Source of the DNA: Escherichia coli
GTDB lineage: Bacteria > Pseudomonadota > Gammaproteobacteria > Enterobacterales > Enterobacteriaceae
Assembly (NCBI RefSeq): GCF_044324785.1
Contig: NZ_CP172127.1
DNA: 64,000 nucleotides
Strand: one strand, 5' to 3'
The first letter of the stretch is position 1. The number at the start of each line of letters is the position of its first letter. Of this stretch, positions 1,315 to 21,337 are shown piece after piece. A program made the translations under genes and the position numbers. The notes under the pieces were generated by a model. The model saw only the letters and a program-made list of their open reading frames with translations, did not search any database and was not told where the DNA came from.

Positions 1315-1333
1315 GTGCCAATCCGGTGTGTGG
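1315..1333 (+). repeat. shufflon 19-bp repeat 1 (gtgccaatccggtgtgtgg)
   Basis: Exact match to the repeat inside pilV (reverse complement of 2578..2596). Confidence 0.85.
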
Positions 1334-1705: not shown

Positions 1706-1709
1706 GGAC

Positions 1710-2061: not shown

Positions 2062-2069
2062 GGAGGCCA

Positions 2070-2088
2070 GTGCCAATCCGGTTTGTGG
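2070..2088 (+). repeat. shufflon 19-bp repeat 3 (one mismatch: gtgccaatccggtttgtgg)
   Basis: Direct orientation; separated from repeat 2 by an 8-bp spacer. Confidence 0.8.
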
Positions 2089-2295
2089 CTTGGAGGCAAT
2101 AAAGTGAACTATTCTGCCTGTAAATGGTATGAAGCGACCTCCGCACATTTTATCGGTGGCAGAAGCGGAGGCTCTATTTATTACAAGCCGATTCAGTGCC
2201 CTGCCGGGTACGTCATGACAGGTACAAGAATGTACGGCATCGGAGATGGTGTTGATGAAGAGCACGTCGATGCTTACTGTTGCCCTTTTGGTTAG
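2070..2295 (+). CDS. silent alternative PilV C-terminal cassette B' (Cys-containing)
   Basis: Open frame from repeat 3: CQSGLWLGGNKVNYSACKWYEATSAHFIGG...CCPFG; convergent with the currently expressed pilV C-terminus. Confidence 0.55.
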
Positions 2296-2331
2296 ATTCC
2301 GAGGGCCGGTATTTAATTTTCTCCCGTTGGC

Positions 2332-3534
2332 TTATTTCTCACAGATTGCTATAGCCTGGAAACAACTCAGGGAGCCAGAGCCAGTAGCAATCCACCGATT
2401 GTTTTTGTAATCAGGGTAACTACCATCTGGTGAGTTGTATCCGTTATGGACCCACTGGGATAACCTGTAGCCGCCGGAGACCAACTTACTCCCCGATGGG
2501 CATACCGCGTAAGACGATGTCTGAAAGCACCCATTCCCGCCGGATACTGTGAAACGCTCTTTTTTGTCACTGTTTTGCCACACACCGGATTGGCACGAAA
2601 GTATTGCCCCTTTACTGTCGCGGCCTACAAGTCCGTCCGGTGAGCAGGAAGTACCTGCGGTGGCTGTTTTTTCCAGCTGTAAATACTCACCCGTGGAAAG
2701 ACGCCCCTCAGACCGGACAGTTCCACCACTGACTTTTCCTCCTTTGAGCTCTCCTTCGGTTGTGATCCCTTTGTTGTTAACAGCACGTATCCATTGGCTG
2801 TCCGTCATGGTGAAGCCGCCACCATTTGGATGTAACCAACGATTTGATGTGACATCGCCTGAAAATCTGGCGTTTTTACCACTGGCTTCATTGATATTGG
2901 TGATGCTGTTATTATTCATATCAATGCCAGTATGCATTCTGTTTAAATCGGGTCTTCCCTGAACGCTGTAGCGGTAAAGCCGATCGCTTTCCTCCAGATC
3001 TTTTCCAGCCATTCGCATGGCGATATGCCCCTTGTTGCAGGTAATCTGATAATTACTTCCCAGATCGGTCCAGCCGCCAAAGGCACCTGTAACGGAATTA
3101 TTCTGGAGCATAAAACCACCGAGTCCATTAATCTGGCCCGCTATGCGACGTAACCCATCTTCTTTAATATCCTGTCCTCCGGTTGTGCAGGTAAGTGCTT
3201 CCAGACGACCGGATAAATTATTTTTTCTGATACCGGTAATATAGCTGTGTCCAAAGGGGGAGCGGGAAAAACCGTTGTTCAGATATCCCTGCTGAATTAA
3301 TTCATTTACCGTGATGGTTTTACTGGAAAGTGAGCTGGTTTTATCAGCCACATAATTCTTTATTGCATTATTATATTCATCAGCATGTAAAGCCGCACTT
3401 TGATAAAGTTGTTCATTCAGCCAGTCTTCAATTTCTGAATAAATCATTGGCGTGGCGATACCAATTACTATCAGGCCTGCCAGAATTTCAAGCAGAATAA
3501 AACCTTTATCGTCATCGTGTCTGAATTTTTTCAC
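2332..3534 (-). CDS. pilV: type IVB minor pilin/adhesin PilV, current shufflon isoform (400 aa)
   Basis: Prepilin-like N-terminus (MKKFRHDDDKG/FILLEILAGLIVIGIA); C-terminal third lies inside shufflon segment B; GTG start overlapping the pilU stop. Confidence 0.8.
   Translation of the reverse strand: MKKFRHDDDKGFILLEILAGLIVIGIATPMIYSEIEDWLNEQLYQSAALHADEYNNAIKNYVADKTSSLSSKTITVNELIQQGYLNNGFSRSPFGHSYITGIRKNNLSGRLEALTCTTGGQDIKEDGLRRIAGQINGLGGFMLQNNSVTGAFGGWTDLGSNYQITCNKGHIAMRMAGKDLEESDRLYRYSVQGRPDLNRMHTGIDMNNNSITNINEASGKNARFSGDVTSNRWLHPNGGGFTMTDSQWIRAVNNKGITTEGELKGGKVSGGTVRSEGRLSTGEYLQLEKTATAGTSCSPDGLVGRDSKGAILSCQSGVWQNSDKKERFTVSGGNGCFQTSSYAVCPSGSKLVSGGYRLSQWVHNGYNSPDGSYPDYKNNRWIATGSGSLSCFQAIAICEK
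2578..2596 (-). repeat. shufflon 19-bp repeat 4, inside pilV at the constant/variable junction
   Basis: Plus strand reads ccacacaccggattggcac; in pilV it encodes CQSGVW. Confidence 0.85.
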
Positions 3535-4181
3535 GTGAATATCTCCGATGTGTGGATAACGGAATCAGGGAAGAGGGTCAGCACATACAGGGACCCGCAG
3601 AGAAACGGGGCAAACGGCAGCGCCAGCTGGCGTCTGCGACGGCAGAAAATGAGGATAAACAGAAATGCTCCGGAGGCTGCGGCGGTGATTATGAGTGGAG
3701 TGTGTTGCGGTTGCGTCCACATTGCGATCCCCGCAATCAGGAACACATCACCAAGGCCGAGCGCTTCCGTCCCTTTCGCTGCCAGAAAAATGCGTCGTAA
3801 CAGGTATATCATGCCGAACCACAGTGACGCGTTGAGCAGGGCATGAGCCAGTGAGTCCTGGCTGTATCTGAACGCTGCGCCCAGAATAATAAGAGAAAGC
3901 GTGAATATCCGGGGAAGCCGACAGACAGCAATATCCGTCAGCGTCATTACAGTTAATAATCCCGTCAGAATGGAAAGGAATAACAGTCCTGTCGCGTCAA
4001 CACCATATGCACCGTTGAGGCAAATGCTCAGGACAGCCAGAAGACAACAGATGCACACCGCAGCGTTGTGTGGGCGGGTATTGTGTACTTCTGATAAATA
4101 TACTGTGGCGGCGCTGTATGAAAGATACAGAATTGCCGCAAGGACAATCAGGATAATGCATATCGGGAGTAATTCAGACAC
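3531..4181 (-). CDS. pilU: prepilin peptidase (216 aa)
   Basis: Polytopic membrane protein in the expected pil-operon position; GTG start. Assigned by synteny with the R64 thin-pilus operon and hydrophobicity profile. Confidence 0.65.
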   Translation of the reverse strand: MSELLPICIILIVLAAILYLSYSAATVYLSEVHNTRPHNAAVCICCLLAVLSICLNGAYGVDATGLLFLSILTGLLTVMTLTDIAVCRLPRIFTLSLIILGAAFRYSQDSLAHALLNASLWFGMIYLLRRIFLAAKGTEALGLGDVFLIAGIAMWTQPQHTPLIITAAASGAFLFILIFCRRRRQLALPFAPFLCGSLYVLTLFPDSVIHTSEIFT

Positions 4182-4193
4182 AGTTACCTCAGC

Positions 4194-4670
4194 TTAATCT
4201 TTTCTGAAATACCGGTTGTGGATTATTCGGGCATATATCATGCGCCGGGCTGTGTTATTTTTGCTGAATCCTGCGTTGTAACTGCCAAGGCATTCCCAGT
4301 TAACGCCGCAGCGTTGAAAATGGCGGGCCAGTATCCAGGCACCGGTATGAATATTCAGGCAGGGCTTTTTAAGCAGTTCATCCTTGTTTTTAATGACGCC
4401 CAGTTTTTTCAGTTCAGGAATATGCACTGAATTAATCTGCATTATTCCGTAATCCGTACTGATGATTTTTCCGGATTTGTTTTTATTGTGATTTATCGCA
4501 GTGGCGACCAGGCCGCTTTCCTGCTGTGCAATGGTTTTCAGAAGCTCAGGGGCAATCAGGTAACGTTTTCCGGCCTGAATAAAACAGGAATCGAGATGAT
4601 TATTATTCATCACAGATGCGATTGATGTGTGACTGAATAAAAGCAGGACAGAGAGATATAACCATTTCAT
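4194..4670 (-). CDS. pilT: lytic transglycosylase, SLT domain (158 aa)
   Basis: Signal peptide followed by SLT-like motifs (TIAQQESG, YGIMQIN); in R64-type operons pilT is a transglycosylase, not the retraction ATPase. Confidence 0.75.
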   Translation of the reverse strand: MKWLYLSVLLLFSHTSIASVMNNNHLDSCFIQAGKRYLIAPELLKTIAQQESGLVATAINHNKNKSGKIISTDYGIMQINSVHIPELKKLGVIKNKDELLKKPCLNIHTGAWILARHFQRCGVNWECLGSYNAGFSKNNTARRMIYARIIHNRYFRKD

Positions 4671-4728
4671 TATGATAATCCCGGCAGTGACAGCATCCTC
4701 TGGTATTTAAGGATGCTGTCCGGAAACA

Positions 4729-5265
4729 TTAGCTGTTTGTTTCAAGGGTGATGTTATTTTTGTCGTTACTACATACTGTTACGGGATCCACAGTAGCCGG
4801 GGCGGTATTCATGATTTTGGTAAACATGGATGAACTGCGCAGGCTGTTAATGAGTTCCACGCAATTTTCTTTCGGTACATTATTGCTGGTAATCGTATAA
4901 CCATACTTATCTGCTGTTGCCTTAATGGTGACATCACCGCCCCAGGCATTTTTGGCCTTGTTACCACCGGCGATCATATCGGCCGGCAGGGAACCACTCT
5001 GCGTCAGCGTTTTGATATAATCACTGCTGGTATATTGTCCCTGGAACTTGTACTGCTTCATTTTTGTTGCAATAGTCTGCAGGTTTTTCAGTTCACGCTG
5101 GTTATCACTGGATGACATTGTGCTGGACATCTGACTTATTGCGAGAGATACCACAATACCGATGATAATCAGTGCACCGGCAACTTCCAGTAAGGTTAAA
5201 CCTTTATCCTCCTCTTTCTCTTTTTTTAAAGCAAAATAAGAATAAAGACATGATCTGAAGTTCAT
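4729..5265 (-). CDS. pilS: type IVB major prepilin (178 aa)
   Basis: Long leader then G/LTLLEV cleavage motif and hydrophobic alpha-helical N-terminus; AGGAG RBS upstream. Confidence 0.8.
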   Translation of the reverse strand: MNFRSCLYSYFALKKEKEEDKGLTLLEVAGALIIIGIVVSLAISQMSSTMSSSDNQRELKNLQTIATKMKQYKFQGQYTSSDYIKTLTQSGSLPADMIAGGNKAKNAWGGDVTIKATADKYGYTITSNNVPKENCVELINSLRSSSMFTKIMNTAPATVDPVTVCSNDKNNITLETNS

Positions 5266-5314
5266 ATATCACTCCTGGTTTATGGGATGTTTCAGAAATA
5301 TTCTGTATGCGGGA

Positions 5315-6415
5315 TTATTGTTTCAGCATGTCGCTGATACTGTAGATGGCAGATATCATGTTAAGAATAAAAAAGAAGACAAAACCTCCTGATATACCGG
5401 TAATAATTAATCCCATTCGTTTTACCCGTTTTTTTGCCTCTTCCAGCCACTGATCGGCATAGAGTGCCATGGTTGCCACTCTGTCCTCCCTTTCGGAGTT
5501 CAGGAGCAGTTTATTGATGCATATTCTGGACGGAAAATCGTAACCGGAATTTCGCATTGCTGTGGCCAGATTCTGACCGGATAATACATGTTTTCGTATT
5601 GCCTGAATTCTCTCCTTTAACCATTTATTCTTTTCTGCACCTTTTTCCATTCGGAGCAGCGCCTGCGAAAGAGGAATATTAATCTGCAGCATGGATGAAA
5701 TACTGAACAGATAATTCACCCCGTGTAAGGTCTGATACAGTGACCAGGGGGGAGCCTTGTCCAGCATCCTCCGGCCGGGGCCGGTATACCGGCTGAATGA
5801 AAAACGGATCAGAAGCGTCAGGGCGAAAATGGTCCCACAGAGCCAGAATCCGTACCCGATGAAAAATTCCGACATGCCGGCAAGCAATTTCATCTGGAAT
5901 GACCATTTATCTTCTGAAGCAAACGCACTGACGATGGGGATGATACGGGTATGGGCGTTGTACATATTCACCACACAGAGCGAAAGCAGCAGAAGGGGGT
6001 AGAGGCAGACGGCAATGAGGCTGGATGTCATTTCCCGCCGGGCTTTAACGGTTCTGGCCACCTGGAAAAGGGCGTCGGCAATATTTCCGCGCTCTTCCCC
6101 GTTTCTGATTAACGTGGCTTCCTCCGGTGGCACCCAGGTTAACAGGGCACCGGATAACATGCCGCTGGCTTTGATGGAATCGATGCATTCTTTTGCCAGA
6201 AAATACATGCCGGATGTGCCTTTCTTTTCACCAAAATCGGTTTCGATCTCGCAGAGAAATTCGAGTGCACGCAGGGACGGCGTTCCGTCACGTATCATGC
6301 CGCCCAGGGCTTCGTAGAACTCCACCCGGTTCAGGGCAAAGGTTTTTCTGGCTATCCAGACAGTCAGTGCTGTCAGCTCAATGTCGGTGTTGTTGAGTTT
6401 TTCCAGAAATCTCAT
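5315..6415 (-). CDS. pilR: type IV pilus inner-membrane platform protein, GspF/PilC-like (366 aa)
   Basis: Start set to ATG at 6415 (MRFLEKLNNTD...), immediately after the pilQ stop; size agrees with R64 PilR. Confidence 0.7.
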   Translation of the reverse strand: MRFLEKLNNTDIELTALTVWIARKTFALNRVEFYEALGGMIRDGTPSLRALEFLCEIETDFGEKKGTSGMYFLAKECIDSIKASGMLSGALLTWVPPEEATLIRNGEERGNIADALFQVARTVKARREMTSSLIAVCLYPLLLLSLCVVNMYNAHTRIIPIVSAFASEDKWSFQMKLLAGMSEFFIGYGFWLCGTIFALTLLIRFSFSRYTGPGRRMLDKAPPWSLYQTLHGVNYLFSISSMLQINIPLSQALLRMEKGAEKNKWLKERIQAIRKHVLSGQNLATAMRNSGYDFPSRICINKLLLNSEREDRVATMALYADQWLEEAKKRVKRMGLIITGISGGFVFFFILNMISAIYSISDMLKQ

Positions 6416-6416
6416 G

Positions 6417-7937
6417 TCAGTGCAGCAGCGTATAGCTGTCCTCGTCGATGGGAGAGATGTAATGGGCCGCCAGCGGATCAACCTGCCCGCTGTTGATTTT
6501 TCCCAGCAGATGCTGATTTCGTGTCATGCCGCCCAGCTCCCGGTGCCAGTATGTTCTGGCCTCAATACGCCCCTTTTCCCGGTACAACTGGAAAAAACGC
6601 GCATCCGGGGAGATGACTTCTGCGATCACCGTTCGTCCTGTCACGCCACGCCAGCAGTGCGGGCAGCCTTCATGATTTCGCAGATATACCTGGTCCGGGT
6701 TGCAGACGCTTTCCACCAGGCGCCGTTCATCATCCGTGCGCTCGGTAGCCACCTCATGCCAGGGGCGACGGCAGTGCGGACATATCAGCTGAACCAGACG
6801 CTGGCTCAGCAGGCCAATGAACAGTTGCGGGTCGGCAATCATCCTGGCCTGTACCCCCTCCATCTCAAGACGTTCGAGGATGTTAATCGGGTCGTTCGCA
6901 TGGATGGTGGTCAGCATCAGATGCCCGGTCATGGCGGCTTTTATTGCCGTAATGGCGGAATCGTGGTCACGGATTTCGCCGTTCAGGATCCCGTCAGGGT
7001 CAAGACGCAGTGCTGATTTAATGGAGTCCACCCAGCCCTGTGCGGAATCCATGACGGCGGTCTGAATGGCACCGGGTATACGGCCCTCTGGCGGGGATTC
7101 AATGGTGAACAGCCTGCGACGGGGCAGAAGAATACCGCCGGTATTGTTGAAGCCGTACTGTTCAAGGTACGCCGCAGAGGCGGTTCTCAGCGTGGTGGAT
7201 TTTCCTGAACCTGTTGGTCCTGAGAGCGTGATAATACCTTCAGGGCGCTGCAGAATACGGCGCAGGGTGCGCTCCTGCTCAGGGTGGTAGCCCAGCATGC
7301 TGAAGGTCGGGATTTGCTGACTGTCATCCTTGATCAGACGGAGCACAGCATAGAGGCCGCCCACGCAGGGATAGTGGGAGTAGCGTGCACCAAACAGACC
7401 GGCCAGTTTCAGGTACTGCTCTGAAAGACGCGCATCCTGAGGCACCCCGGGATCAAACTGTGTGCCCTTGATGACGTCGGTCATGCCGGAATAGGTGGCC
7501 CCCAGTAATTCGAGGCCTTCTTCTTTCCGGAGGATATCGAGCACTTCCAGTTCGCCGTGAACCCGGGCTTCCACATAGGTGAAGTCCGTGTTGTCTCGTC
7601 CCGGGGTCATATGAAGGTCTGAGGCATCCAGTTGAGCGGCTTTTCTGATGTAATCAAGAACTTTTCTTTGTACTGTGTTGATCCCTCCGTCGGATAAAAC
7701 GCCCGGTGCACGTTCCGTATTATTGCTGTTCAGGGTTGCGATAACGTCAAGAGTGGTAAAATCGAATTTGCTGATTTTTCCCGGATAGCGGGAGCGTAAG
7801 AGCGTCAGGTAACGTTGTACAGAGGTGATGTGCTTCTTCGCCTCGACGACTTTCACCCTGATTTTTCCGTCAGCGTCATGCTGAATTGCGACGAAATCAC
7901 GAATATCTTCAGGAGGCAGTTCGATAGTCTCTGGCAT
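6417..7937 (-). CDS. pilQ: type IV pilus assembly ATPase, GspE family (506 aa)
   Basis: Walker A (LSGPTGSGKSTTL) and tetracysteine motif (CPHC...CPHC). Confidence 0.85.
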   Translation of the reverse strand: MPETIELPPEDIRDFVAIQHDADGKIRVKVVEAKKHITSVQRYLTLLRSRYPGKISKFDFTTLDVIATLNSNNTERAPGVLSDGGINTVQRKVLDYIRKAAQLDASDLHMTPGRDNTDFTYVEARVHGELEVLDILRKEEGLELLGATYSGMTDVIKGTQFDPGVPQDARLSEQYLKLAGLFGARYSHYPCVGGLYAVLRLIKDDSQQIPTFSMLGYHPEQERTLRRILQRPEGIITLSGPTGSGKSTTLRTASAAYLEQYGFNNTGGILLPRRRLFTIESPPEGRIPGAIQTAVMDSAQGWVDSIKSALRLDPDGILNGEIRDHDSAITAIKAAMTGHLMLTTIHANDPINILERLEMEGVQARMIADPQLFIGLLSQRLVQLICPHCRRPWHEVATERTDDERRLVESVCNPDQVYLRNHEGCPHCWRGVTGRTVIAEVISPDARFFQLYREKGRIEARTYWHRELGGMTRNQHLLGKINSGQVDPLAAHYISPIDEDSYTLLH

Positions 7938-7946
7938 GATGGCACC

Positions 7947-8408
7947 TCACGGGAGTAGCGTCTGCCTGTTGCCGTTGTATTCCAGAATCACACTGTCCGG
8001 TGTGATTTGTTCCACCATGAACAGTGTACCGGGTAATGCCTGTCCGGCCCTGACATCAGTTTCAGTTCCTCCGGGGAGTATGACGCGTGCTGAAAGCTGT
8101 GGCTGAATACCAAAGATTTCTTTCAGACGGGGGGATGAAAATGCCTGTGAACCGGAGGAGGTGCCAGCCGCATTTTCCGGCTGATGTCCCGTGACAGAAC
8201 CGGAAACCGGGGAGATACCCTGTTCCAGTGTCCGCAATTCATGACGAATTTTTTCTCTTGCCAGCATCGCTTCATACAGGGCGGTTTCTTCCTGAATCTG
8301 CTCAATCTGCAGTTGTTTGTTCTGTGACGCGTCATTTTCGTTGCCGGCCACTGCCATTGCCGGTAACAGCAGGGCTGCAATCAGCAGCGCTTTTGTTTTA
8401 TCGTGCAT
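7947..8408 (-). CDS. pilP: pilus assembly protein PilP-like (153 aa)
   Basis: Internal ATG at 8408 gives a signal-peptide N-terminus (MHDKTKALLIAALLLPAMAVA); size matches R64 PilP. Confidence 0.65.
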   Translation of the reverse strand: MHDKTKALLIAALLLPAMAVAGNENDASQNKQLQIEQIQEETALYEAMLAREKIRHELRTLEQGISPVSGSVTGHQPENAAGTSSGSQAFSSPRLKEIFGIQPQLSARVILPGGTETDVRAGQALPGTLFMVEQITPDSVILEYNGNRQTLLP

Positions 8409-9693
8409 AATATTTACCTGTGAACTGATAACGGAAACGACCATTTTCCAGTTGTCTTGTGACAGAGAGAAAACGGACAGATGGCTCGCTGAAGCGCTCT
8501 GCCAGCTGGTTAGCCGGGAGTAGCGTCTGTATCTGCAGGTCATACTCTTTCCACGGTGGCTGGATGATGTTTCCGTTTTCATCAGTGAAGCTGTTATTGA
8601 CTTCCTGCCAGTCAATCTGCAGTTGAACTGACTGTGCGAGCGTGGTCAGTCGTTCCTGCAGGTCTCGGGTTTCCGGAAGGGAATCAACCGGGACAGGATT
8701 ATCCGGGAGCCGGAATGTGACCGGCAGTGCAACGCCGCCAGAGTTCCCTTCAGGCATAACAATAAACGGCCGGGTGTCTGTGAGTTCAGTGATGCGCCGG
8801 ATGAAGGCTGTCACTGTCGTGCCTGCTGTATTGGTGTATGAAGACCGCAGATTACCGCTGTTACCGTCAGAAGAACATTCAGCCAGGGTATAACGCCATC
8901 CGGCAGCAGACAGTGGCGTCTGGTTCCATGTTGTGCTGCATTGCCGGATAAATTCTCCGCTCTCAGGCTGCCTCGTCCATGGTGGCGTTATACGTGCTTC
9001 AGCTGCTTTCCGGGCGCTTTCTTCCCGTTCCGCTTTTTCCGCCTGCCAGATTTCATAACGTTGCCAGCCGTACCACGATGCGCCAAGCAGCGTGATGATG
9101 AGTAAGGCTGTCATTAACTGTGGGCCTCTGGACACGGGGAGCAGACGCGCTTCTGCCGGATGCTTTCTGGTGCTGATCAGGTTTGACAGCGGTAGCGGGA
9201 TACACCGACTGTCTGGTGAAAAACCGTCAGGTTCGTAGCGTACCCAGCCGTTTTCCGGTTCCGCATTGAGCATCAGGAACGTGTTGCGGGCTTCCGTGAT
9301 TTCAGTCGGGGTACCGGTAACGTCGTTAACCAGAATGCCATTAATCACCGATACAAACGCACAGGTGAGTTCAGCGTCGTCGTTCTCGTCGTTCCCGATG
9401 ATGAAAATGGCATACCCACCTGATTTGAGTAGCGGGCGTATTAACATTGCCAGTGACAGGCACTGGCGAATGTTACGGGGGATATCTGCATCCTGACGAC
9501 TGAGCAGGGCAATCATCATTTCATCACCGTTTTCACCGTCGTGGTTGTGGCAGGAAAGATACAGTTCTGCGCCCTGTGACCGGGCAAACCGCCGGGCATT
9601 CCGGTAACCGGGAGGTATGCTCTTCCAGTCAAGGCCCGCAAGGAATGCCTGTTTACCCGATATCAGTGAAACCGGACGAATTTTTTTCTGCAT
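8398..9693 (-). CDS. pilO: pilus assembly protein PilO-like (431 aa)
   Basis: Start at ATG 9693 (MQKKIRPV...); length equals R64 PilO as I recall it; one internal TM segment. Assigned by synteny. Confidence 0.65.
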   Translation of the reverse strand: MQKKIRPVSLISGKQAFLAGLDWKSIPPGYRNARRFARSQGAELYLSCHNHDGENGDEMMIALLSRQDADIPRNIRQCLSLAMLIRPLLKSGGYAIFIIGNDENDDAELTCAFVSVINGILVNDVTGTPTEITEARNTFLMLNAEPENGWVRYEPDGFSPDSRCIPLPLSNLISTRKHPAEARLLPVSRGPQLMTALLIITLLGASWYGWQRYEIWQAEKAEREESARKAAEARITPPWTRQPESGEFIRQCSTTWNQTPLSAAGWRYTLAECSSDGNSGNLRSSYTNTAGTTVTAFIRRITELTDTRPFIVMPEGNSGGVALPVTFRLPDNPVPVDSLPETRDLQERLTTLAQSVQLQIDWQEVNNSFTDENGNIIQPPWKEYDLQIQTLLPANQLAERFSEPSVRFLSVTRQLENGRFRYQFTGKYYAR

Positions 9694-9716
9694 TGACCCG
9701 TTCAAGGGAACCTCCG

Positions 9717-11342
9717 TCAGATTACGTGCGGTGTGATCAGCACAACCAGAATGGTGTCATCGTCACCGCTGTCAGTGCCGCCACCCAGCCCGAAGAATGC
9801 CGGGCTGCCGACGCCCTGGCGCACGGATTTGCTGCCGGACTGCCGGAATCCGCTGAGAATGACGGTCTGACCTGATTTCAGGTCGATGGTCTGGTTGATG
9901 GTTTTCAGGTCCACCGTGGGTACCTGTGCCCGGCTGCCGCCGCTCTCGAACACCTCAAAGGTGGGTTTGTCGGAGAGGTTCATGCTGAAGAGCAGCTGCA
10001 GGCTGCGCGCATCCGGCTGAATGAACGGCAGCAGGGTCATGTTGAAGCCGGTGGTGATGGTGGCGGCGTTCAGGGAGGTGCTGGTCCCGACGTTGGCCGT
10101 GGTGTCGGTGGTGACACCTTCGATATAGCCCTGCTGGCTGGCCACCTGCATGGGCACCGGCGTCATGTTTTTGGTGACGGCGGAGTTCTGTGTGACCACG
10201 CTGACGGTGCCCTGACTGGAGAGCGCCTTCAGGAAGGCCTTCGAGCCGGTGAGCTTACCGTCCACAATGGAGACGCCACTGGTGATGATGTCATCGGCGG
10301 CACTGCTGAATGCCCCTCCCAGCGTGAGGCCGAGACGTCCGTCGCTGAAGACGGCATTCCAGTCAATGCCGGCCTGGTCACGGCGGGTTTTTCTGACGCT
10401 GAGGACTTCCACGTTCAGCACCACCTGACGTCGCATCTCGCGGTTACGTGCCTCCACAAAACGGCTGACGGTGTCGAGGACCCGAGGGGTGTCGGTGACG
10501 GTGAGAAAGCCGGTGGCAAGCACCATCCGGCCGGTCCCGGGGGTCAGCATGGCACCGACGGCATTTTTCAGGTCCTCATAGAGGGTGGACTTCATGTCGA
10601 CCGTGGTGGTCTGGGTGTTGCTGGCCTCCCCGCTGAGGGTGCCGGCGTTACTGCCGGTACTGCTGCCGGATGAGGAGGAGGCGGTGCCACTGACCACCCG
10701 GGCGTTGTAGGTCACCTGAGAGTCCATGTAGGTGACCGGGAAGGTGCGTGTCTCCAGCCAGTAAAAGGTGATGGCGCGCCGGTCACTGTCGTAACGGTAC
10801 GAGATACCGAGCCGGGAGGCGACGGTATCCAGCAGCTGCCGCAGCCCGGTGGCGCTGAGTTCCGGCAGGACGGCACCGCCGCCCGGGGGGATGACCTGTG
10901 CGCCACTGCCGACGGCGGCCAGCGGCACCATGCCGTTCGGGTCCGGTGCGGGGATTGCGCCTGTCAGCTGCTGTGTGGGGCCGGTGGTGGCCAGCGCCTG
11001 CCAGACGTCGGCGGTGATGGTCACGGGGATACCGCAGCTTCCGGTGATGCGCTGGGCTATCTGCCGCAGGCTGATATCCCGGCGGGTGTTGATGATGATG
11101 GGGCAGCCCGGCAGGCTCTGGTGTGCGGGGCTGACGCTGACAGGGGAGGGGTTGATCCACTGTCGCGTGGTCTCCGTGACCACCGGCCGGGATTTACGGA
11201 GTTCGCCTGCGTGCCGGCGCGCTTTCTCCAGTGTGGCGGTGGCGTCTTTTTCCGTGTTGCTGATACGTTCGGCCGTACCGCAGCCTGACAGCAGCAGGGC
11301 GACGGCAGTCAGTGGCAGGAGCATGTGTTGTCTTTTTTTCAT
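9717..11342 (-). CDS. pilN: outer-membrane secretin lipoprotein (541 aa)
   Basis: Lipoprotein signal (MKKRQHMLLPLTAVALLLSGCG); secretin-like C-terminal region (...ILVVLITPHVI). Confidence 0.8.
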   Translation of the reverse strand: MKKRQHMLLPLTAVALLLSGCGTAERISNTEKDATATLEKARRHAGELRKSRPVVTETTRQWINPSPVSVSPAHQSLPGCPIIINTRRDISLRQIAQRITGSCGIPVTITADVWQALATTGPTQQLTGAIPAPDPNGMVPLAAVGSGAQVIPPGGGAVLPELSATGLRQLLDTVASRLGISYRYDSDRRAITFYWLETRTFPVTYMDSQVTYNARVVSGTASSSSGSSTGSNAGTLSGEASNTQTTTVDMKSTLYEDLKNAVGAMLTPGTGRMVLATGFLTVTDTPRVLDTVSRFVEARNREMRRQVVLNVEVLSVRKTRRDQAGIDWNAVFSDGRLGLTLGGAFSSAADDIITSGVSIVDGKLTGSKAFLKALSSQGTVSVVTQNSAVTKNMTPVPMQVASQQGYIEGVTTDTTANVGTSTSLNAATITTGFNMTLLPFIQPDARSLQLLFSMNLSDKPTFEVFESGGSRAQVPTVDLKTINQTIDLKSGQTVILSGFRQSGSKSVRQGVGSPAFFGLGGGTDSGDDDTILVVLITPHVI

Positions 11343-11531
11343 GCAGAAATCCTTGTGTGAAACGTGAAAACAGTGAGCAGAGCAGGGAGGGCAGAAGCGC
11401 TTCGGGACTGAAGTCTGCGCGTGATGGCGATATATCCGCGGGACATGACCGCGGCCGGATATGCAGACTTCAGTCCACAGGCTCCTCACACTGTGCGGGA
11501 CAGCGAAGGTTAACGGTGCAGTGATGTCCCG

Positions 11532-11969
11532 CTAGTTGAAATAAACAAATGCGCTGTCAGGAATGACGGACGGCACGCTGATACCGGTGTCCTGACCTGT
11601 GGTGTTCAGCAGTCGCCGCCCCTTCACCCGGCCTGCCAGCGCGGTTTTGTGGGTGATGTCTGCCAGCGCACCTGCAAGCCCCGGGCGGTCATCCTGCCAG
11701 ACAAAGACCCGCTGTCCGGCGATGATATGGCGGGTACCGTATACCGGGCGGAAACCCGTGGCGGTGACGGGGAGCGTGCCACCCCCCGTGCGCTCAGCCG
11801 GATGGGTGTACAGCCGGTCGTTAATGCCGTTCATGAGGCGGACCATCTCCCACGCACGTTCACGCATCTCCGCCTGCTCGCTGTACACGGTGACCCGGTG
11901 GGTACTGCTGTTGTGAAACCAGGTCAGCGCCACGGTCAGGGCCATGACCAGGGAGAGCGACCAGCCCAT
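11532..11969 (-). CDS. pilM: pilus assembly protein PilM-like (145 aa)
   Basis: Start at ATG 11969 (MGWSLSLVMALTVALTW...), directly after the pilL stop. Assigned by synteny and size. Confidence 0.6.
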   Translation of the reverse strand: MGWSLSLVMALTVALTWFHNSSTHRVTVYSEQAEMRERAWEMVRLMNGINDRLYTHPAERTGGGTLPVTATGFRPVYGTRHIIAGQRVFVWQDDRPGLAGALADITHKTALAGRVKGRRLLNTTGQDTGISVPSVIPDSAFVYFN

Positions 11970-11971
11970 GG

Positions 11972-12697
11972 TCAGTCTCCCGGTCTGTCGCTGACGTGCA
12001 CCACACACTGCGTGCTGTTGATGGCTGCATACAGCGGCGTCTGTGCGTCCTGATAGAGACGGAAGAGTTCACTGAGCGCGTGGCGGAACTCGCCGGTGAA
12101 ATGCAGCGGCGCATCGATGCTGTAATTGAGTCCGGGGTTCTGCCAGGCCAGCTGCCAGGTGCCACCGGCCTGACAGGGAACGGCGGCCACCCACTGCTCA
12201 AGACCGGCACGCAGCAGGGTTCCGCGGGCAAGAGTCCAGGTGGTCCGTGCATGCGCCGGTTGCGGCATGTTTGCTGATTTTTCCGCGGTTTTTTCCTGCA
12301 GACTGGTGGTGCCCGGGGTGGCCTGAGACGGACTGAACAGGGTGTTCCGCTCAATACGTACATGCTTCTTCTCCGTGTCGGTGATGGCGCGGAGCTGATA
12401 TTTTTTCAGCATGCGTTCCGTAACGTAATTCCACTGGTCATTTCCCTTCCATGACACCGTGCGGGGCGGCCTGACATCCGGTGCAATGTCAAATGTCCAT
12501 CCCGGCGGTATCAGTTGCTGCATGGCTTTTTTCAGTGATAACCCTTTACCGTCCCGGGGAATAAATTTCAGTGCTCCCGGAGCGCTGCTGACCGTGGACG
12601 ATGAGGGTGCACTGACCTGAGAAGGTGACGGTGCAGCAAAAAGTGGAACAGAAAATGCCAGCAGCGGCACAATAAGAAGTGGTTTCAGTGGTGTCAT
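11972..12697 (-). CDS. pilL: pilus assembly protein PilL-like, secreted (241 aa)
   Basis: Signal peptide (MTPLKPLLIVPLLAFSVPLFAAPSPS); first large gene of the operon. Assigned by synteny. Confidence 0.6.
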   Translation of the reverse strand: MTPLKPLLIVPLLAFSVPLFAAPSPSQVSAPSSSTVSSAPGALKFIPRDGKGLSLKKAMQQLIPPGWTFDIAPDVRPPRTVSWKGNDQWNYVTERMLKKYQLRAITDTEKKHVRIERNTLFSPSQATPGTTSLQEKTAEKSANMPQPAHARTTWTLARGTLLRAGLEQWVAAVPCQAGGTWQLAWQNPGLNYSIDAPLHFTGEFRHALSELFRLYQDAQTPLYAAINSTQCVVHVSDRPGD

Positions 12698-12749
12698 ATT
12701 ATGGTCCTGTATCGCACATTTTTTGTGTTTCCTGAGCCTGTATCCGGTT

Positions 12750-12968
12750 TTATTCCGGCTGAACTCTGCTGCATGAGAATGCGGTGACGTTCACTTTCAC
12801 ACTGAACGATTTACCGGCCTCTTTTTCTTTTGAAAACAGCCTGACGCATTCAGGCTCAGTCATCGGTGTGTTCTGAAAACGCACCCAGGATACCGGTGCA
12901 CCACCAGGCTTCAGGATGGTGGCTTCAATCCGGTATTTATGCGGTGTGGTGTCTGTTGTTGCTGTCAT
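12750..12968 (-). CDS. small hypothetical protein (72 aa) leading the pil operon
   Basis: ATG preceded by AGGAG at about 6-nt spacing; co-directional with pilL, about 50 bp upstream. Confidence 0.45.
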   Translation of the reverse strand: MTATTDTTPHKYRIEATILKPGGAPVSWVRFQNTPMTEPECVRLFSKEKEAGKSFSVKVNVTAFSCSRVQPE

Positions 12969-13005
12969 TCATGGCTCCTGTTGCCGGTTTCCGGTCCCGG
13001 AAAAA

Positions 13006-13047
13006 CAGGCGACATCAGCAACAAGGGGAAAAACGCGATGTCGCCTG
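13006..13047. promoter_or_regulatory. perfect 11-bp inverted repeat (caggcgacatc ... gatgtcgcctg) in the divergent control region between the pil operon and the helicase operon
   Basis: Seen directly in sequence; candidate operator or stem-loop. Confidence 0.35.
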
Positions 13048-13494
13048 AAAGGTACTGGTGCAGCGGTGCGTTGTACGGACGCAGGTCCGCACAACCGGAA
13101 ATACACGGGATGATTCGGTCAGTGTATTTTCGTGTTGTGCGCCTGTACTGATACGGCAGGGTGTGATGAGTGTTACCTGTGGCTGCAGGCGCGGCACGTC
13201 ACTCATAACGTAGCATTCTGTTTCCTCCTCAGCCCGGCTTCAGGGCGTTGCCGCAATACCCGATTGTTAAAGAGCCTTACCGGCATGGTGTCCGGTGTCA
13301 CCGCGCGGATAACGATACGGCGGTGTCTGAAGGGATGATGCTGCGGCGCTCTGCACATGGCGACGATTAATTCTTTTTGTGTTTCTGAAAATTTATTGCC
13401 GGGAAATTTCTGGTGTGACAGGGTGAATTAATTCTGGTCAGCGACGCTCCTGAGAAGGCAGAGTGCGCTGACATTTCGTGAACGGAGGAATGCC

Positions 13495-15003
13495 ATGTCC
13501 CTGAATCCCACCGATGAACAGTCAGCCATCATTCACTGGCAGGGGGAAAAACTGGTGGTGAATGCCTTTGCCGGTACAGGCAAAACCAGCACACTGGTGC
13601 AGTTCGCCGCAGCCTGCCCTGAGAGCCGGATGCTGTATCTGGCCTATAACCGCGCGATTCGTGATGAGGCGGAGCGCCGGTTTCCCTTTAATGTGGAGTG
13701 CAAAACCTCCCATCAGCTGGCGTATTCGCGGTTCGGAAAGCATTTCCGGCATCGTCTGGTGCCGGGGCTGTCAGTGACGGATGTAGCGAGAAAACTGAAC
13801 ACCCGCTACTGGACGCTTGCCCGTGTTGCCATGACCGCGCTGAATCAGTTCATCTGTTCGGCGGACGTGGCGCCCGGAATGCAGCATATGCCGCCTCCCG
13901 ACGAGATGAAGGGCATGTCGCCACAGGATGCGCTGCGTGCCGTGCAGATCCTCTGGCATGAAATGAGCAATCCGGATGGCAATTTTCCGGTCACTCACGA
14001 CACCTATCTGAAGCTCTATCAGCTTTCCTCACCGGATCTGTCACGCAGGTGGGATACGATCCTTTTTGATGAGGCCCAGGATGCGAATCCGGTGACGTCC
14101 GCACTGGTGCTGGGGCAGCGGTGCAGGGTGGTACTGGTTGGCGACCGTTACCAGCAGATTTATCGTTTTCGTGGTGCCAGCAATGCACTGTCGCATCCGG
14201 CACTGAACGGGGCGGACCGTCTCTGGCTGACGCAAAGTTTTCGTTTTGGTCCTGCCGTGGCCGGGGTGGCCAGCCAGTTACTGAAGCGTGCCGGCGAGAG
14301 CCGTGAGGTGACCGGCAGGGGCGGGGATGATGAAGTGCTGACGGCAGGTGAAATGCGTGCGCGCGTGAAGGCAGGGAAGATGACCGGTCACAGGGCGATA
14401 CTGAGCCGGACGGTGGCCGGTGTGATTGGCACCGCACTGATGGCGGCAATGCGTGGCAGGAAGGTTTACTGGGTGGGGGGCATTGAAGGCTACAGAACGG
14501 AGGCACTGGAAGATCTTTACTGGTTTCAGATGGATATGCCGGAGCGGATGCACAGTGACAGACTGCGGAAGGACTACCGGGGTTTTGACGAGTACCGTCA
14601 TATTGCGAAGGTGACGAAGGATGTGGAAATGAATCAGTCCATTCGTCTGCTGGAGCTGTGCTTTCCGCTGCCGAAGAAACTCGAACTTCTCAGAAAGCAC
14701 ACCGTCACGAATGAACAGGAGGCGGATATCACGGTCTCAACGGCACACCGCAGTAAGGGACTGGAGTGGTCACTGGTGGTACTCGATGATGATTTTCAGG
14801 ATATCACCGACCCGCTGATAAGCGAGCAGGAGCGGCGGGATGAAACCAATCTGCTCTATGTGGCGGTCACCCGGGCGCGCAGAACGCTGGTTCTCAATGA
14901 ACTCATGCAGCAGCTGACGGAAGCTGCCGGCGATGGTGGTGCACCCGGAAACGCGCCGGTGCAGGGGAAGGAAGACGATGGTGTGGAGGGAGAGGATGTT
15001 TAA
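13495..15003 (+). CDS. UvrD/Rep-like superfamily-1 DNA helicase, short form (502 aa)
   Basis: SF1 motifs in order: Walker A (AFAGTGKTS), DEAQD (motif II), VGDRYQQIYRFRGA (III), SFRFG, TAHRSKGLEW (V), LYVAVTRAR (VI); GGAGG RBS. Confidence 0.8.
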   Translation: MSLNPTDEQSAIIHWQGEKLVVNAFAGTGKTSTLVQFAAACPESRMLYLAYNRAIRDEAERRFPFNVECKTSHQLAYSRFGKHFRHRLVPGLSVTDVARKLNTRYWTLARVAMTALNQFICSADVAPGMQHMPPPDEMKGMSPQDALRAVQILWHEMSNPDGNFPVTHDTYLKLYQLSSPDLSRRWDTILFDEAQDANPVTSALVLGQRCRVVLVGDRYQQIYRFRGASNALSHPALNGADRLWLTQSFRFGPAVAGVASQLLKRAGESREVTGRGGDDEVLTAGEMRARVKAGKMTGHRAILSRTVAGVIGTALMAAMRGRKVYWVGGIEGYRTEALEDLYWFQMDMPERMHSDRLRKDYRGFDEYRHIAKVTKDVEMNQSIRLLELCFPLPKKLELLRKHTVTNEQEADITVSTAHRSKGLEWSLVVLDDDFQDITDPLISEQERRDETNLLYVAVTRARRTLVLNELMQQLTEAAGDGGAPGNAPVQGKEDDGVEGEDV

Positions 15004-16525
15004 GCGGTTCAGACGTATGCTGCCCGGCACAAAGGGCACGGAGCCTGGCGTGGTCGCGCCGGTGATACCGGCAGGGTTTTATGCGCCGCTCACGGCAGAG
15101 GCACTGTTATCACCAGAGCACAGGGAGCTGAGGCTCAGGCAGGTCTGGGATAACAATCCGATGCCCCGTGATGTATACGACAGGATGTGCCTTGAACCAC
15201 TCAGCCGGCTGCTGCTGAACACCCAGAACGTCCCGGCAACACGGGAAGGACGGTGGTCCCGTGCCGGTGGATTTGGTGATCTGACGGTACTGTACACCAC
15301 GTATGCCGTTCGTCTGGCAAGAGGGTACATGTTTCCACCGGATGCGACCCCGGAAGACCAGGCGGCTCAGGCCGCAGTCTGGCATGCGGTGATTTTCTGG
15401 TCAGCGCTGTTTTACCACCTGCCCCTGCTGGCGCACCTTGAGGGGGAACTGCTGAGTGGGCGGGGCTGGCAGCCAGGAATTTCTGTGCCTGACGAACCTT
15501 TCCGTTTCCGGTTCAGGAAGACGGCGCCGCAGGGTACGGAAGCGCAACAACTTGCGGCCCTGACTGCCGGCACGCTGTTACCGGACGGCGCAACGGCCTG
15601 GCTTGTGACGGCGCCGGGCGCACTGCAGAATCTGGCCGGGGCGCTCTGGCATCAGCATCCCGGGATGGCGCTGATTCGTGATGTGCTGCAGGAAGCGGCA
15701 AGGCAGACAGAGAGTCCGCTGAATACCTGCGCTGTCACTGCGCCGGTTACTGCGGAGGCTTCAGCAGACATTCGTCCTGCTGACCCGGTGGTGACCGGCA
15801 GCACGGACAGTGTGGTGGCAGTCACTGAGGTGCAGCCGGCAGAGGAGGTGAAGACTGAGAGCGTGCAGACAGAGACTGAAGGTGGTGGTGAGTCCGCCGG
15901 GGCGTCAGAGGTGCCGTCCGCACAGCAGGAACTGACGGTTCAGACAGCGCCAGTGGTGACGGCAGATGATGAAGCGGTCAGTGCTGCTCCTGCGGATCAG
16001 GACACAGCAATGCTGCTGAGTCTTTTTTCAGCAGATGAGTCCGAAACTGCTGAACCTGAAAACAGTATTAAATCGTCAGCCGATCGGGACGGCCAAAGTG
16101 ACGTACCGGCAGTACAGGGAGAACAAACCAGCGTTATTTATCCGGAGGGCGAAGCAGATACGGAAGAGGTGGATTTTATTACTTGGCTGAAATCGGGGTT
16201 GTCATCGGGGATGATTGAAATAAATACACCTTCCGCGAGAGTGCATTGTATTGCGGGGTATGTTTTTTTGTGTGTCCCGGATATTTTTTATCTGTATCAG
16301 AAAATGACGGGAAGCCGTCGTGACCGCAGGAGTGTTCAGGCGTTGTTTGAACGTTCCCGTATTCACAAAATCCGGGAAGGTGAGCGTTTTTTCAGCCTGC
16401 ATCTGTATAGTGTACCTGACAGAACAGGGAGTTATAAAGCTGTAAGCGGATATCTGGTTAAAAGCCGTTATCTGTGTGGTTATAACGCAGTGCCCGGGGA
16501 CAGTGAATACATTGCTTTTCCATAA
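14996..16525 (+). CDS. hypothetical 509-aa protein: N-terminal domain, long acidic low-complexity linker, conserved-looking C-terminal domain
   Basis: ATG overlaps the helicase stop (ATGTTTAA) with GGAGGG RBS; no Walker A and no HD motif found by eye; alternative starts at 14933 or 14978. Confidence 0.6.
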   Translation: MFKRFRRMLPGTKGTEPGVVAPVIPAGFYAPLTAEALLSPEHRELRLRQVWDNNPMPRDVYDRMCLEPLSRLLLNTQNVPATREGRWSRAGGFGDLTVLYTTYAVRLARGYMFPPDATPEDQAAQAAVWHAVIFWSALFYHLPLLAHLEGELLSGRGWQPGISVPDEPFRFRFRKTAPQGTEAQQLAALTAGTLLPDGATAWLVTAPGALQNLAGALWHQHPGMALIRDVLQEAARQTESPLNTCAVTAPVTAEASADIRPADPVVTGSTDSVVAVTEVQPAEEVKTESVQTETEGGGESAGASEVPSAQQELTVQTAPVVTADDEAVSAAPADQDTAMLLSLFSADESETAEPENSIKSSADRDGQSDVPAVQGEQTSVIYPEGEADTEEVDFITWLKSGLSSGMIEINTPSARVHCIAGYVFLCVPDIFYLYQKMTGSRRDRRSVQALFERSRIHKIREGERFFSLHLYSVPDRTGSYKAVSGYLVKSRYLCGYNAVPGDSEYIAFP

Positions 16526-16555
16526 CAGCACCGGGTCATTCATCCGTTCAGGGAG

Positions 16556-17668
16556 ATGTATTCCCCTATGAAGAAAGATGTCGAAAAAATAACGTGGGAG
16601 GAATTACTCTTTGAGTACTTCCTTGAGAAAAATCTTAAACCTGATACTGAACACAGCTACCGCAAAGTTGTCCGTCTGTTTGATAAGTTCCTGGGCGGTG
16701 ATTCCTGGCCCGGCGATGTCACACCGAGAGACATTCAGCGATGGCGACGTCATATGCTTAAAGATCAGGGGCGTTCAGTAAACACCTGGAATAACAGAGT
16801 GTCACATCTCCGACCGCTCCTGGCGCTTGGGATCAAGAAAAAGTGGTTACCACAGACGGAAAATCCGCTTGATGGCACTTCAGTGCCCGGGGCATCAAAA
16901 CAGAAAAAAACGCTCACTGATAAAGAGATGGTCAGGATTTACCGTACAGTTCAGGCTTTTGCTGAAGCTGAGGCCAATAAGATGGTGATCTGTGACAGGC
17001 GGCGCAATGCGATGTACCCTGCATGGTACTGGCTGATCGTGCTGGATACGCTGCGCTTCACGGGGATGCGTTTTAACCAGCTGAAACATATCAGGCTGAA
17101 GGATATTCATGAGGATGAGGCGGTGATTACCCTTCAGCTGGAAGGGAGTAAAACCCGACGTGAATGGCGTGTGCCGATTGTGGAATCGTTACGACTTTCA
17201 CTGAAACATCTTATTGAGTGCGCCCGTGTCAATGGTGCGTCGGATAATGACTATCTCTTTGATGTCTGCCTGTACAGCGAGCATTACAGTCCCGGGAAAT
17301 ACCAGTACTGTGCCAAAAGAGCGCATCAGTCGGTCAAATCTTTTTTCCGCAGACTGAGCCGTGAATGTGGTTTTTTTGTCTCGTCACACAGATTCAGACA
17401 CACACTGGCAACAAAGCTGATGGCGGCACCGGAGCGTAATCTGCACATGGTCAAATCCATTCTGGGGCACAGGAGTGTTGCCACCACCATGGAGTATATT
17501 GATTTTTCGGTGGAAGTTGCTGCTGAGGCACTGGAGGCTGAACTCGGTTTATCCACGGATGAGGCGACAAAAAGACGGATTAAAGAGGCGAAAAAACGCC
17601 GTGAGGCCAGTACCGGGAAAAAGGAAAAACAGGAAAGTTCTGGAGGGGAACTTTCTGACAAGGAATAA
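16556..17668 (+). CDS. int: tyrosine-type site-specific integrase (370 aa)
   Basis: Catalytic-domain motifs (RFRHTLATKLM; LGHRSVATTMEYIDF); about 200 bp from the tRNA-Phe 3' end. Confidence 0.85.
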   Translation: MYSPMKKDVEKITWEELLFEYFLEKNLKPDTEHSYRKVVRLFDKFLGGDSWPGDVTPRDIQRWRRHMLKDQGRSVNTWNNRVSHLRPLLALGIKKKWLPQTENPLDGTSVPGASKQKKTLTDKEMVRIYRTVQAFAEAEANKMVICDRRRNAMYPAWYWLIVLDTLRFTGMRFNQLKHIRLKDIHEDEAVITLQLEGSKTRREWRVPIVESLRLSLKHLIECARVNGASDNDYLFDVCLYSEHYSPGKYQYCAKRAHQSVKSFFRRLSRECGFFVSSHRFRHTLATKLMAAPERNLHMVKSILGHRSVATTMEYIDFSVEVAAEALEAELGLSTDEATKRRIKEAKKRREASTGKKEKQESSGGELSDKE

Positions 17669-17872
17669 ACATGCTTGACATCGGACCAGAATGGTGTAAG
17701 CATTTTTGCGTATGCGAGAGCGTGACACCTGTTACCAGCAGGTGCCACGCTTGAGGATACGATACTGAAACCACAGTGTAACCAGACTTACACGGAGATT
17801 TCGTTATGACCGGATCCTGTATTAGACGCCCGTTAAGGATCTCATCCCTTAACCAGCGTACTTTGATGCGTT

Positions 17873-21300: not shown

Positions 21301-21337
21301 AAAAAACGGGTCACCTTCTGGCGACCCGTTTTTCTTT
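21301..21337. terminator. bidirectional rho-independent terminator between convergent speC and nupG
   Basis: Hairpin acgggtcacc/ggcgacccgt flanked by an A-run and a T-run. Confidence 0.7.

Follow-up and report, generated by a model that had tools for sequence, protein, structure and literature searches.

The region under study is a 526-bp gap (positions 12969 to 13494) between two divergent operons in an integrative conjugative element (ICE), located within a 64,000-nucleotide stretch of the Escherichia coli contig NZ_CP172127.1 that is called the window below. Judging from the sequence, it is a noncoding region made of two modules: a hairpin-rich left module next to a DUF1187 family gene and the type IVb pilus (pil) genes, and a right module that represents the upstream region of a helicase operon. 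The gap contains discrete elements conserved beyond the level of coding DNA, two of its stems covary between lineages, and its two parts differ in distribution. We tentatively favor the reading that the left module serves the DUF1187/pil transcript as its promoter and structured leader, or as a regulatory module, with a terminator-like hairpin formed by an inverted repeat (IR), IR-1. Taken by itself, the gap is an ordinary conserved regulatory intergenic region.

An earlier note on this DNA had described a divergent control region between a small minus-strand open reading frame (ORF) and a plus-strand helicase gene. The divergent arrangement was confirmed and the intergenic region is real and conserved, but a second hairpin (IR-2), a nearly invariant block, and the two-module structure had been missed. 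Because the gap separates divergent transcription units, it should carry both promoters, as had been proposed, and its right-hand 110 to 150 bp or so recur upstream of all helicase-TraI-integrase modules examined, as would suit a promoter or leader. Both promoters are putative, however, as promoter and consensus terminator scans called neither a sigma-70-like promoter nor a canonical terminator in the gap. Likewise, Rfam covariance models gave no match at E values up to 1 on either strand of positions 12500 to 13700.

Conserved elements and modularity of the gap

The full gap was found in two lineages only, approximately 70% identical to each other. The lineage of the window comprises 36 E. 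coli genomes and the metagenome variants L017, L024, and L029, and the sister lineage comprises the loci L002 to L004, L019 to L021, L027, L033, and L037, the last of which was first considered as a third lineage but belongs to the sister one. A wider search of plasmids, viral contigs, metagenomes, and species-representative genomes retrieved only the same two lineages or chance matches.

IR-1 (13006 to 13047) is a perfect 11-bp inverted repeat with a 20-nt spacer, followed on the minus strand by TTTTT (13005 to 13001). Its arms, caggcgacatc (13006 to 13016) and gatgtcgcctg (13037 to 13047), lie exactly where the earlier note had placed them, 37 to 38 nt upstream of the start of the 72-aa minus-strand ORF (approximately 40 bp in the note). 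Perfect inverted repeats of at least 11 bp with a loop of 3 to 40 nt occurred in only 6 of 1,000 dinucleotide shuffles of the gap (0.6%) and at 5 loci across the 64-kb window. The IR-1 core, GGCGACATC/GATGTCGCC (9-bp arms), is invariant among eight variants from the two lineages, as are the GGGGAAAA motif in the loop, the run of five or six A residues, and the flanking GAAAG. The rarity of such repeats in shuffled sequences and the retention of this one across approximately 30% divergence indicate that IR-1 is more than a chance feature. Its fold z scores are −6.4 on the plus strand and −7.5 on the minus strand. In both lineages, the minus strand carries T5 to T6 after the repeat, and the sequence beyond diverges completely. 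As the spacer varies from 20 nt in the window lineage to 12 to 14 nt in the sister lineage while the arms are unchanged, IR-1 is better viewed as a hairpin than as a fixed-phase site for a dimeric protein. Further perfect inverted repeats of 11 to 13 bp are found in the window at 2049 to 2082, 4689 to 4720, 21302 to 21333, and 50578 to 50619; the first, with 13-bp arms, lies within the shufflon/pilV region, and the third (AAAAACGGGTC..GACCCGTTTTT) directly follows the speC ORF and resembles a speC terminator.

IR-2 (13088 to 13141) is an imperfect hairpin with a 19-bp stem, CGCACAACCGGAAATACAC/GTGTATTTTCGTGTTGTGCG, a 15-nt loop, one bulge, and one G·T pair (fold z scores of −6.8 and −4.4 on the plus and minus strands, respectively). 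Two compensatory double changes distinguish the lineages (TA to CG and AT to GC), and the bulge and wobble positions are retained in both. A further stem, stem-3 (13163 to 13172/13200 to 13209), shows one compensatory and one wobble change. In IR-2 and stem-3 together, four pairs carry compensatory changes; 97% of the cells are paired, versus 26 to 50% in slid controls. Over the same four stems, 97.3% of the cells pair on the plus strand, versus 92.2% on the minus strand.

Stem-3 opens a nearly invariant block (13163 to 13275) that is 85 to 92% identical between the lineages. In the identity profile, a block of approximately 90 bp stands above the helicase coding sequence (approximately 0.8), the DUF1187 gene (approximately 0.68), and the pil genes (0.5 to 0.65). 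This single-copy segment of the ICE is thermodynamically unstructured (z > 0), indicating that its constraint acts on sequence, and 2-nt indels flank it, so that no long ORF runs through it. It contains a stem formed by GCGGCACG (13191 to 13198) and CGTTGCCGC (13246 to 13254), where the lone substitution in the latter arm falls on a bulged base, and the box GATTGTTAAAGAGC (13262 to 13275). It also carries, on the minus strand, a predicted five-codon mini-ORF with the Shine-Dalgarno (SD) sequence GAGGAGG (13199 to 13230), which codes for MLRYE* in the window lineage and MLRRE* in the sister lineage. The SD sequence, AUG, and UGA are kept in both, and nearby indels occur only in the spacer between SD and AUG (7 versus 9 nt). 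The stop codon of the mini-ORF (ORF at 13216 to 13199) and the ATG of a 63-aa minus-strand ORF (13015 to 13206; ATGAGTGA) overlap in the window lineage. The 63-aa ORF is probably spurious: the sister lineage has AGA in place of its ATG, and longer frames are interrupted by 2-nt indels.

The earlier note had also pointed to a repeated motif, GATACGGC. It is indeed present at 13150 and 13314, but the repetition is at chance level, with approximately two repeated 8-mers expected in 526 bp (C(519,2)/4^8), and neither copy is kept in the sister lineage. The first copy is contained in a 16-nt direct repeat, CTGnnnnGnCAGnGTG, of which there are three copies (13148 to 13163, 13410 to 13425, and 13450 to 13465); of these, the sister lineage keeps the two helicase-proximal ones but not the first.

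The modular organization of the gap emerged when ten diverged helicase-TraI-integrase loci were compared; they come from Escherichia, Salmonella, Klebsiella, Enterobacter, Dickeya, Mixta, Serratia, and Yersinia. All ten lack IR-1, IR-2, and the block, as does pSGI4, the circular form of SGI-4, which was found by a tblastn search of plasmids with the N domain of TraI_2. The upstream neighbors of the ten loci are unrelated cargo genes, and these loci and pSGI4 keep only the last 100 to 150 nt or so before the helicase ATG. Common to them are TTTCTGAAAAT, CTGGT-N5-6-GTCGC/GCGAC, GTGACAG(G/T)GTGA, a hairpin, and an SD sequence. The left module (12969 to 13280), for its part, was seen only where DUF1187/pil adjoins, i.e., in the window, L002 to L004, L037, and the metagenome variants, and thus appears to travel with these genes.

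The right module (approximately 13345 to 13494, plus strand) contains two copies of ATTAATTCT, TTTCTGAAAAT, CTGGT-N-GCGAC, GTGACAGGGTGA, a hairpin (13438 to 13474), and the SD sequence GGAGG, in an AT-rich part of the gap. As its motifs are present in every helicase-TraI-integrase module examined, including that of SGI-4, it can be assigned on this basis to the helicase operon as its family-wide upstream region. It would comprise a promoter that is presumably activator-dependent and a 5′ leader in which a hairpin closely precedes the SD sequence. In L006 and L007, a homolog of positions 13345 to 13400 precedes an inserted invasin-like gene, which suggests that the operon promoter lies within this segment. 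The hairpin before the helicase SD sequence recurs in all family members, with differing sequences, at approximately 35 to 80 nt before the ATG (L006 to L015 and L087). In the Enterobacter/Klebsiella/Salmonella type, it is formed by GTGACAGT..ACTGTCAC, and its 3′ arm reaches the SD sequence, and in Serratia and Yersinia, a covarying inverted repeat with 13-bp arms is found at about −115.

A candidate structured leader and alternative readings

A structured leader could account for the organization of the left module as follows. Minus-strand transcription would be initiated within or close to the invariant block, the site of the conserved SD sequence and mini-ORF, and the transcript would then pass through IR-2 and IR-1. 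In the RNA, IR-1 is predicted to fold into a stable hairpin with a U-run behind it, at a distance of 37 nt from the DUF1187 start codon; there it might serve as a terminator-like attenuator or as a stability or regulatory hairpin rather than as a double-stranded operator. Like an intrinsic terminator, it combines on the minus strand an 11-bp stem with TTTTT, and a 10-bp stem with TTTTTT in the sister lineage. No minus-strand gene lies upstream of it. The sequence between IR-1 and the DUF1187 start codon is unconserved and, in the window lineage, devoid of promoter-like sites, arguing that the DUF1187 mRNA begins at or upstream of IR-1. We also counted in favor of a leader the lack of a detectable sigma-70 promoter together with the presence in the ICE of genes for a DUF2857 protein (BisC type) and a 549-aa ParB-family protein (BisD-like). 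In ICEclc, BisC/BisD-type proteins activate late promoters with long leaders, and the motifs are located 59 to 274 bp from the start codons (PMC7423338, PMC9286271).

Several observations weigh against this reading. The IR-1 loop (20 nt, or 12 to 14 nt in the sister lineage) exceeds the short loop of terminators (approximately 3 to 8 nt), the consensus terminator scan made no call at IR-1, and the loop motif and flanks are conserved although a terminator does not need them. In the two lineages, we found no conserved antiterminator or alternative pairing for IR-1. All five stem wobble positions are G·U on the plus strand and A·C on the minus strand, and the alifold energy is −83 kcal/mol for the plus strand versus −60 kcal/mol for the minus strand; this bias runs counter to the expectation for a minus-strand RNA. 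As there are only two lineages, each covariation is effectively a single event. Finally, none of the gap boxes, including those of the block, recurs at the heads of other ICE operons, and the ICEclc promoter motif does not single out the gap. With a position weight matrix (PWM) built from S3 Fig of PMC9286271, the best match in the gap scored 9.6 and ranked 13th in positions 1 to 17700 of the window, among matches in coding regions. The GCGAC-containing gap boxes bear a superficial likeness to the ICEclc transfer-competence motif, which the PWM did not bear out. Sequestration of the ribosome-binding site by an IR-1 arm (pairing I7) was also considered; it is restricted to the window lineage and absent from the sister lineage.

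The minus strand might instead encode an independent small RNA (sRNA) that starts in the block, includes IR-2, ends at IR-1, and acts in trans or on the DUF1187 leader. Its 3′ end would be terminator-like with a U-run, the element would measure approximately 200 to 260 nt, and the block is conserved in sequence and not in structure, as for a pairing or seed region. We nevertheless regard an sRNA as improbable, given that no promoter was detected, that Rfam gave no match, that DUF1187 would be left without a promoter of its own in the window lineage, and that the wobble bias toward the plus strand is again contrary. Somewhat less improbable, yet unlikely in our view, is the proposal that a dimeric regulator binds both IR-1 arms as double-stranded DNA and regulates either the DUF1187/pil promoter or the two divergent ones. 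Palindromic arms that are invariant over approximately 30% divergence, conserved flanks, and a suitable position just upstream of the ORF speak for it, and regulators of the ICEclc family do use inverted repeats, with 11-bp arms in the bisS sites and a weak inverted repeat spaced by 12 bp in the BisC motif (PMC12409273); in the sister lineage, the 10-bp arms of IR-1 are likewise 12 nt apart. An operator nonetheless implies a fixed half-site spacing, and here the 6- to 8-bp difference between the lineages changes the helical phase. Moreover, no second copy of the arm was found at the heads of other operons in the ICE, the spacer of bisS measures 1 nt, in contrast to that of IR-1, the gap shows no enrichment for the ICEclc promoter PWM, and the DUF1187 protein itself has no DNA-binding fold in its AlphaFold2 (AF2) model. 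An operator function of IR-1 is therefore disfavored.

The gap was also weighed as the origin of transfer (oriT) of the ICE, in which case the hairpins and the invariant block would provide the adjacent TraI_2 protein with its nic region and its site of relaxosome assembly. RP4-type oriTs sit between divergent operons, no TraI-type gene is annotated other than the one next to the gap, and the gap elements occur once each, with a conservation exceeding that of coding DNA. We took this reading as the main rival because of the adjacent TraI gene, the existence of hairpin oriTs in the MOBH family, and the report in 2019 that oriT was unidentified in ICEKp2 and SGI-4. The prototype MOBH oriT is an inverted-repeat hairpin for which structure counts and sequence does not; nic lies 3 nt 5′ of the hairpin (PMC6736028). 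The wobble bias also favors the plus strand, which is the transferred strand if Hfr-like transfer from pheV runs counterclockwise. The marker distances in Table S7 of PMC13127887 are given counterclockwise from pheV, i.e., rightward in the window, and a +206-kb marker was co-inherited in 3% of hybrids, versus 0% for a marker at approximately 190 kb on the other side. Nevertheless, we consider a location of oriT in the gap the least probable of the readings. SGI-4 has been described as an ICE (PMC6543542), and it lacks the whole left module: its helicase is preceded only by a terminator and approximately 100 nt. The excision and transfer of SGI-4 have been demonstrated. The left module is thus missing from a transfer-proficient relative, in the form of pSGI4, and also from intact-looking ICEs without pil. 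In addition, the TraI_2 protein (14996 to 16525) lacks the HD and HHH catalytic motifs in its N domain, like the MOBH3 clade, and the lineages differ far more in their TraI N domains (only 69% identity) than in the block (92%). The absence of the module from E24377A-type islands was set aside as evidence against an oriT; it is uninformative because the island is a remnant riddled with insertion sequences and devoid of a type IV secretion system (T4SS). This decayed ICE relative without T4SS genes (L040; NC_009801.1, 3372149 to 3397442, E. coli E24377A) retains the integrase, TraI, and helicase genes, an inverse-autotransporter cargo gene, IS66, IS21, dnaB-PI, and parA.

A better candidate lies elsewhere in the ICE. 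According to a 2026 preprint, SGI-4 encodes a MOB_M (tyrosine-recombinase-like) relaxase, WP_033567157.1, which is among the seed proteins, and MOB_M oriTs are found between the operon for mating pair formation (MPF) and the gene of the relaxase; the preprint cites the experimental localization of the SGI-4 oriT. In pSGI4, WP_033567157.1 is an "integrase domain-containing protein" whose gene is preceded by 970 bp of noncoding DNA and followed by genes for ArdC, DUF1281, and a methylase. Its homolog in the ICE, WP_001696705.1, is 48% identical (E value of 8e-94) and occupies the same position, approximately 25 kb to the left of the gap; with its upstream region, it lies approximately 11.8 to 13.1 kb to the left of window position 1 (NZ_CP021175.1, 2270222 to 2272375; L005, 42223 to 44376). 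The 1.2-kb region upstream of WP_001696705.1 is dissimilar to the gap; it shares conserved patches with its SGI-4 counterpart (52 nt at 92% and 102 nt at 76%), and it contains a strong hairpin, GGCGTCACTTG..CAAGTGACGCC. By homology, WP_001696705.1 and its upstream region are likely the real relaxase/oriT pair of the ICE. With oriT at this location and rightward transfer, the anti-restriction genes would enter first, in agreement with the direction used in the Hfr study.

An oriT located to the left of the gap, together with the direction of transfer in PMC13127887, also makes the plus strand both the transferred strand and the template for DUF1187/pil. IR-1, IR-2, and stem-3 might then fold in the incoming single-stranded DNA (ssDNA) and prime synthesis of the complementary strand, as single-strand initiation (ssi) elements do, or allow early expression of DUF1187/pil in the recipient cell. 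All five wobbles pair on the plus strand only, the plus-strand consensus folds better, and the conserved motif in the loop points to a folded strand being recognized. The strand bias nonetheless rests on five events (sign test, approximately 0.03, one-sided), and the directional data are thin (6/200 versus 0/197 for pheV and 4/200 versus 2/200 for pheU; PMC13127887). We thus hold an ssDNA function to be rather unlikely, marginally more so than the operator. If it were true, the module would represent for an ICE what ssi and Frpo elements are for plasmids, and it would be linked to an accessory pilus module. To our knowledge, ssi elements have no consensus. An Frpo-type ssDNA promoter was rejected upon inspection, as no stem is long enough for a −35/−10 pair.

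Neighboring genes and host element

The 72-aa ORF (12750 to 12968, minus strand) is the first gene on the pil side. The ribosome-binding site reported for it is present, as AGGAG located 6 nt upstream of the ATG. The earlier note had found no recognizable function for this ORF and called it a leader. The profile search that it had suggested assigned the product to the DUF1187 family, as already annotated in RefSeq (Pfam PF06688, E value of 2.4e-24, 85.8 bits versus a cutoff of 20.7; NCBIfam NF007283, 95.8 bits versus a cutoff of 92; also PHROG 5753). In the sister ICEs, the gene lies approximately 500 bp from pilL, arguing that it is not a leader ORF. This spacer, of 52 bp in the window lineage, is filled in L002 by an unannotated minus-strand frame of approximately 146 codons (approximately 5240 to 5720) whose product would be very hydrophobic (MPHPITYTDFLPVVLFFVIVIF...).

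The DUF1187 protein is 64% identical to that of the sister ICE lineage and 55% identical to its homologs in IncI2 plasmids. At 55% identity, homologs were detected in 548 plasmids, 528 of them conjugative, and others are found in Rac-like and Salmonella lambdoid prophages. In the two plasmids inspected, both IncI2, the transfer/pil array is headed by a gene for a CaiF/GrlA-family regulator, the end of which the DUF1187 gene overlaps. A tblastn search for a decayed version of this regulator gene in the gap gave no match. The AF2 model of the DUF1187 protein, of moderate confidence (pLDDT of 76), comprises a beta-sheet and one helix; no DNA-binding motif was seen in it, and a Foldseek search of the Protein Data Bank (PDB) gave no match below an E value of 1.

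On the other side of the gap, Pfam searches identified the UvrD-like helicase (13495 to 15003) and the TraI_2/TraI_2_C protein, both on the plus strand, followed by a tyrosine integrase (16556 to 17668, plus strand) and tRNA-Phe. The TraI_2 protein passes the NCBIfam model TIGR03760, "ICE relaxase, PFGI-1 class" (193 bits versus a cutoff of 161), despite its missing HD and HHH motifs, and its C-terminal domain matches PDB entry 2IPQ. This C-terminal domain varies between lineages in a mosaic fashion (39 to 75% identity), whereas the N domain stays at 63 to 69%.

The gene content of the element shows it to be an E. coli ICE of the ICEEc2/SPI-7/SGI-4 type at tRNA-Phe. The window represents its right end, inserted at tRNA-Phe beside yqgA and speC, with the local order pilV..pilL (minus strand), the DUF1187 gene (minus strand), the gap, helicase, TraI_2, integrase, and tRNA-Phe. 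The remaining ICE genes include parA, dnaB-PI, those for the 549-aa ParB-family, DUF2786, and DUF2857 proteins, STY4528, topB, STY4534, and ssb, as well as genes for an MPF-G-type T4SS (TIGR037xx), ArdA, and DUF1281. The window sequence was found at 100% identity in 54 of 5,426 complete genomes, in E. coli chromosomes.

Comparison with known systems

As shown in PMC13127887, ICEs of this type inserted at pheV and pheU drive Hfr-like chromosomal transfer and the emergence of fluoroquinolone-resistant hybrid E. coli strains. Almost none of their cis-acting control sites has been mapped, and our analysis provides a testable anatomy of the divide between the pilus and helicase operons. It separates the family-wide part of the gap from the accessory part, and it points the search for the likely oriT away from the gap, toward the region upstream of the MOB_M-like gene approximately 25 kb to the left.

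ICEclc, with the BisDC regulon and the promoters PtraI, Pint, and PinR, belongs to the same broad ICE family, both elements having an MPF-G T4SS and parA, parB-like, and DUF2857 genes. The traI and int genes of ICEclc are part of the BisDC regulon (PMC9286271). Its late operons have no sigma-70 consensus and carry regulatory motifs 59 to 274 bp upstream, and the gap similarly has no detectable sigma-70 promoter. In contrast, the 27-bp motif of ICEclc does not rise above background in the gap, the gap boxes are single-copy whereas the ICEclc motifs are shared among operon heads, and a hairpin-rich leader has not been described for ICEclc. The bisS sites of ICEclc, on which the ParB-like BisD clamp is loaded, resemble IR-1 in being 11-bp inverted repeats, and the window ICE encodes a BisD-like protein. 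However, bisS (GAGCTATCCCCnGGGGATAGCTC) has a 1-nt spacer and is present in two copies inside genes, whereas IR-1 is single-copy, has a 12- to 20-nt spacer, and is unrelated in sequence. Nearer to the bisS architecture than IR-1 is a palindrome downstream of topB, ACGGCGCTGAATTTTCAGCGCCGT (11-bp arms and 2-nt spacer; NZ_CP021175.1, approximately 2241840; L005, approximately 13840), and further palindromes with 9- to 10-bp arms are found at NZ_CP021175.1 2230465 and 2248843.

Like intrinsic terminators and attenuators, IR-1 has a GC-containing stem of 9 to 11 bp and a conserved U5-6 run, located between the presumed promoter and the first SD sequence of the operon, and as in attenuators, a short SD-led ORF lies upstream of it. 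It differs from them by its loop of 12 to 20 nt with a conserved motif, by its lack of a conserved alternative pairing, and by the absence of a call in the terminator scan. The MOBH oriT of the gonococcal genetic island is, like the gap, an intergenic inverted-repeat hairpin beside a TraI_2/TraI_2_C gene, with compensatory changes. In contrast to that system, TraI_2 of the window ICE has no HD and 3H motifs, the module is missing from SGI-4, and the oriT of this ICE family appears to lie elsewhere, beside the MOB_M relaxase gene. Finally, the 72-aa protein is a clear member of the DUF1187 family (PF06688), whose homologs occur in phages, including Rac-SA53, and in IncI2 plasmids. In the ICE, the gene heads the type IVb pil operon without a CaiF/GrlA-type regulator, whereas its IncI2 counterpart is preceded by one.

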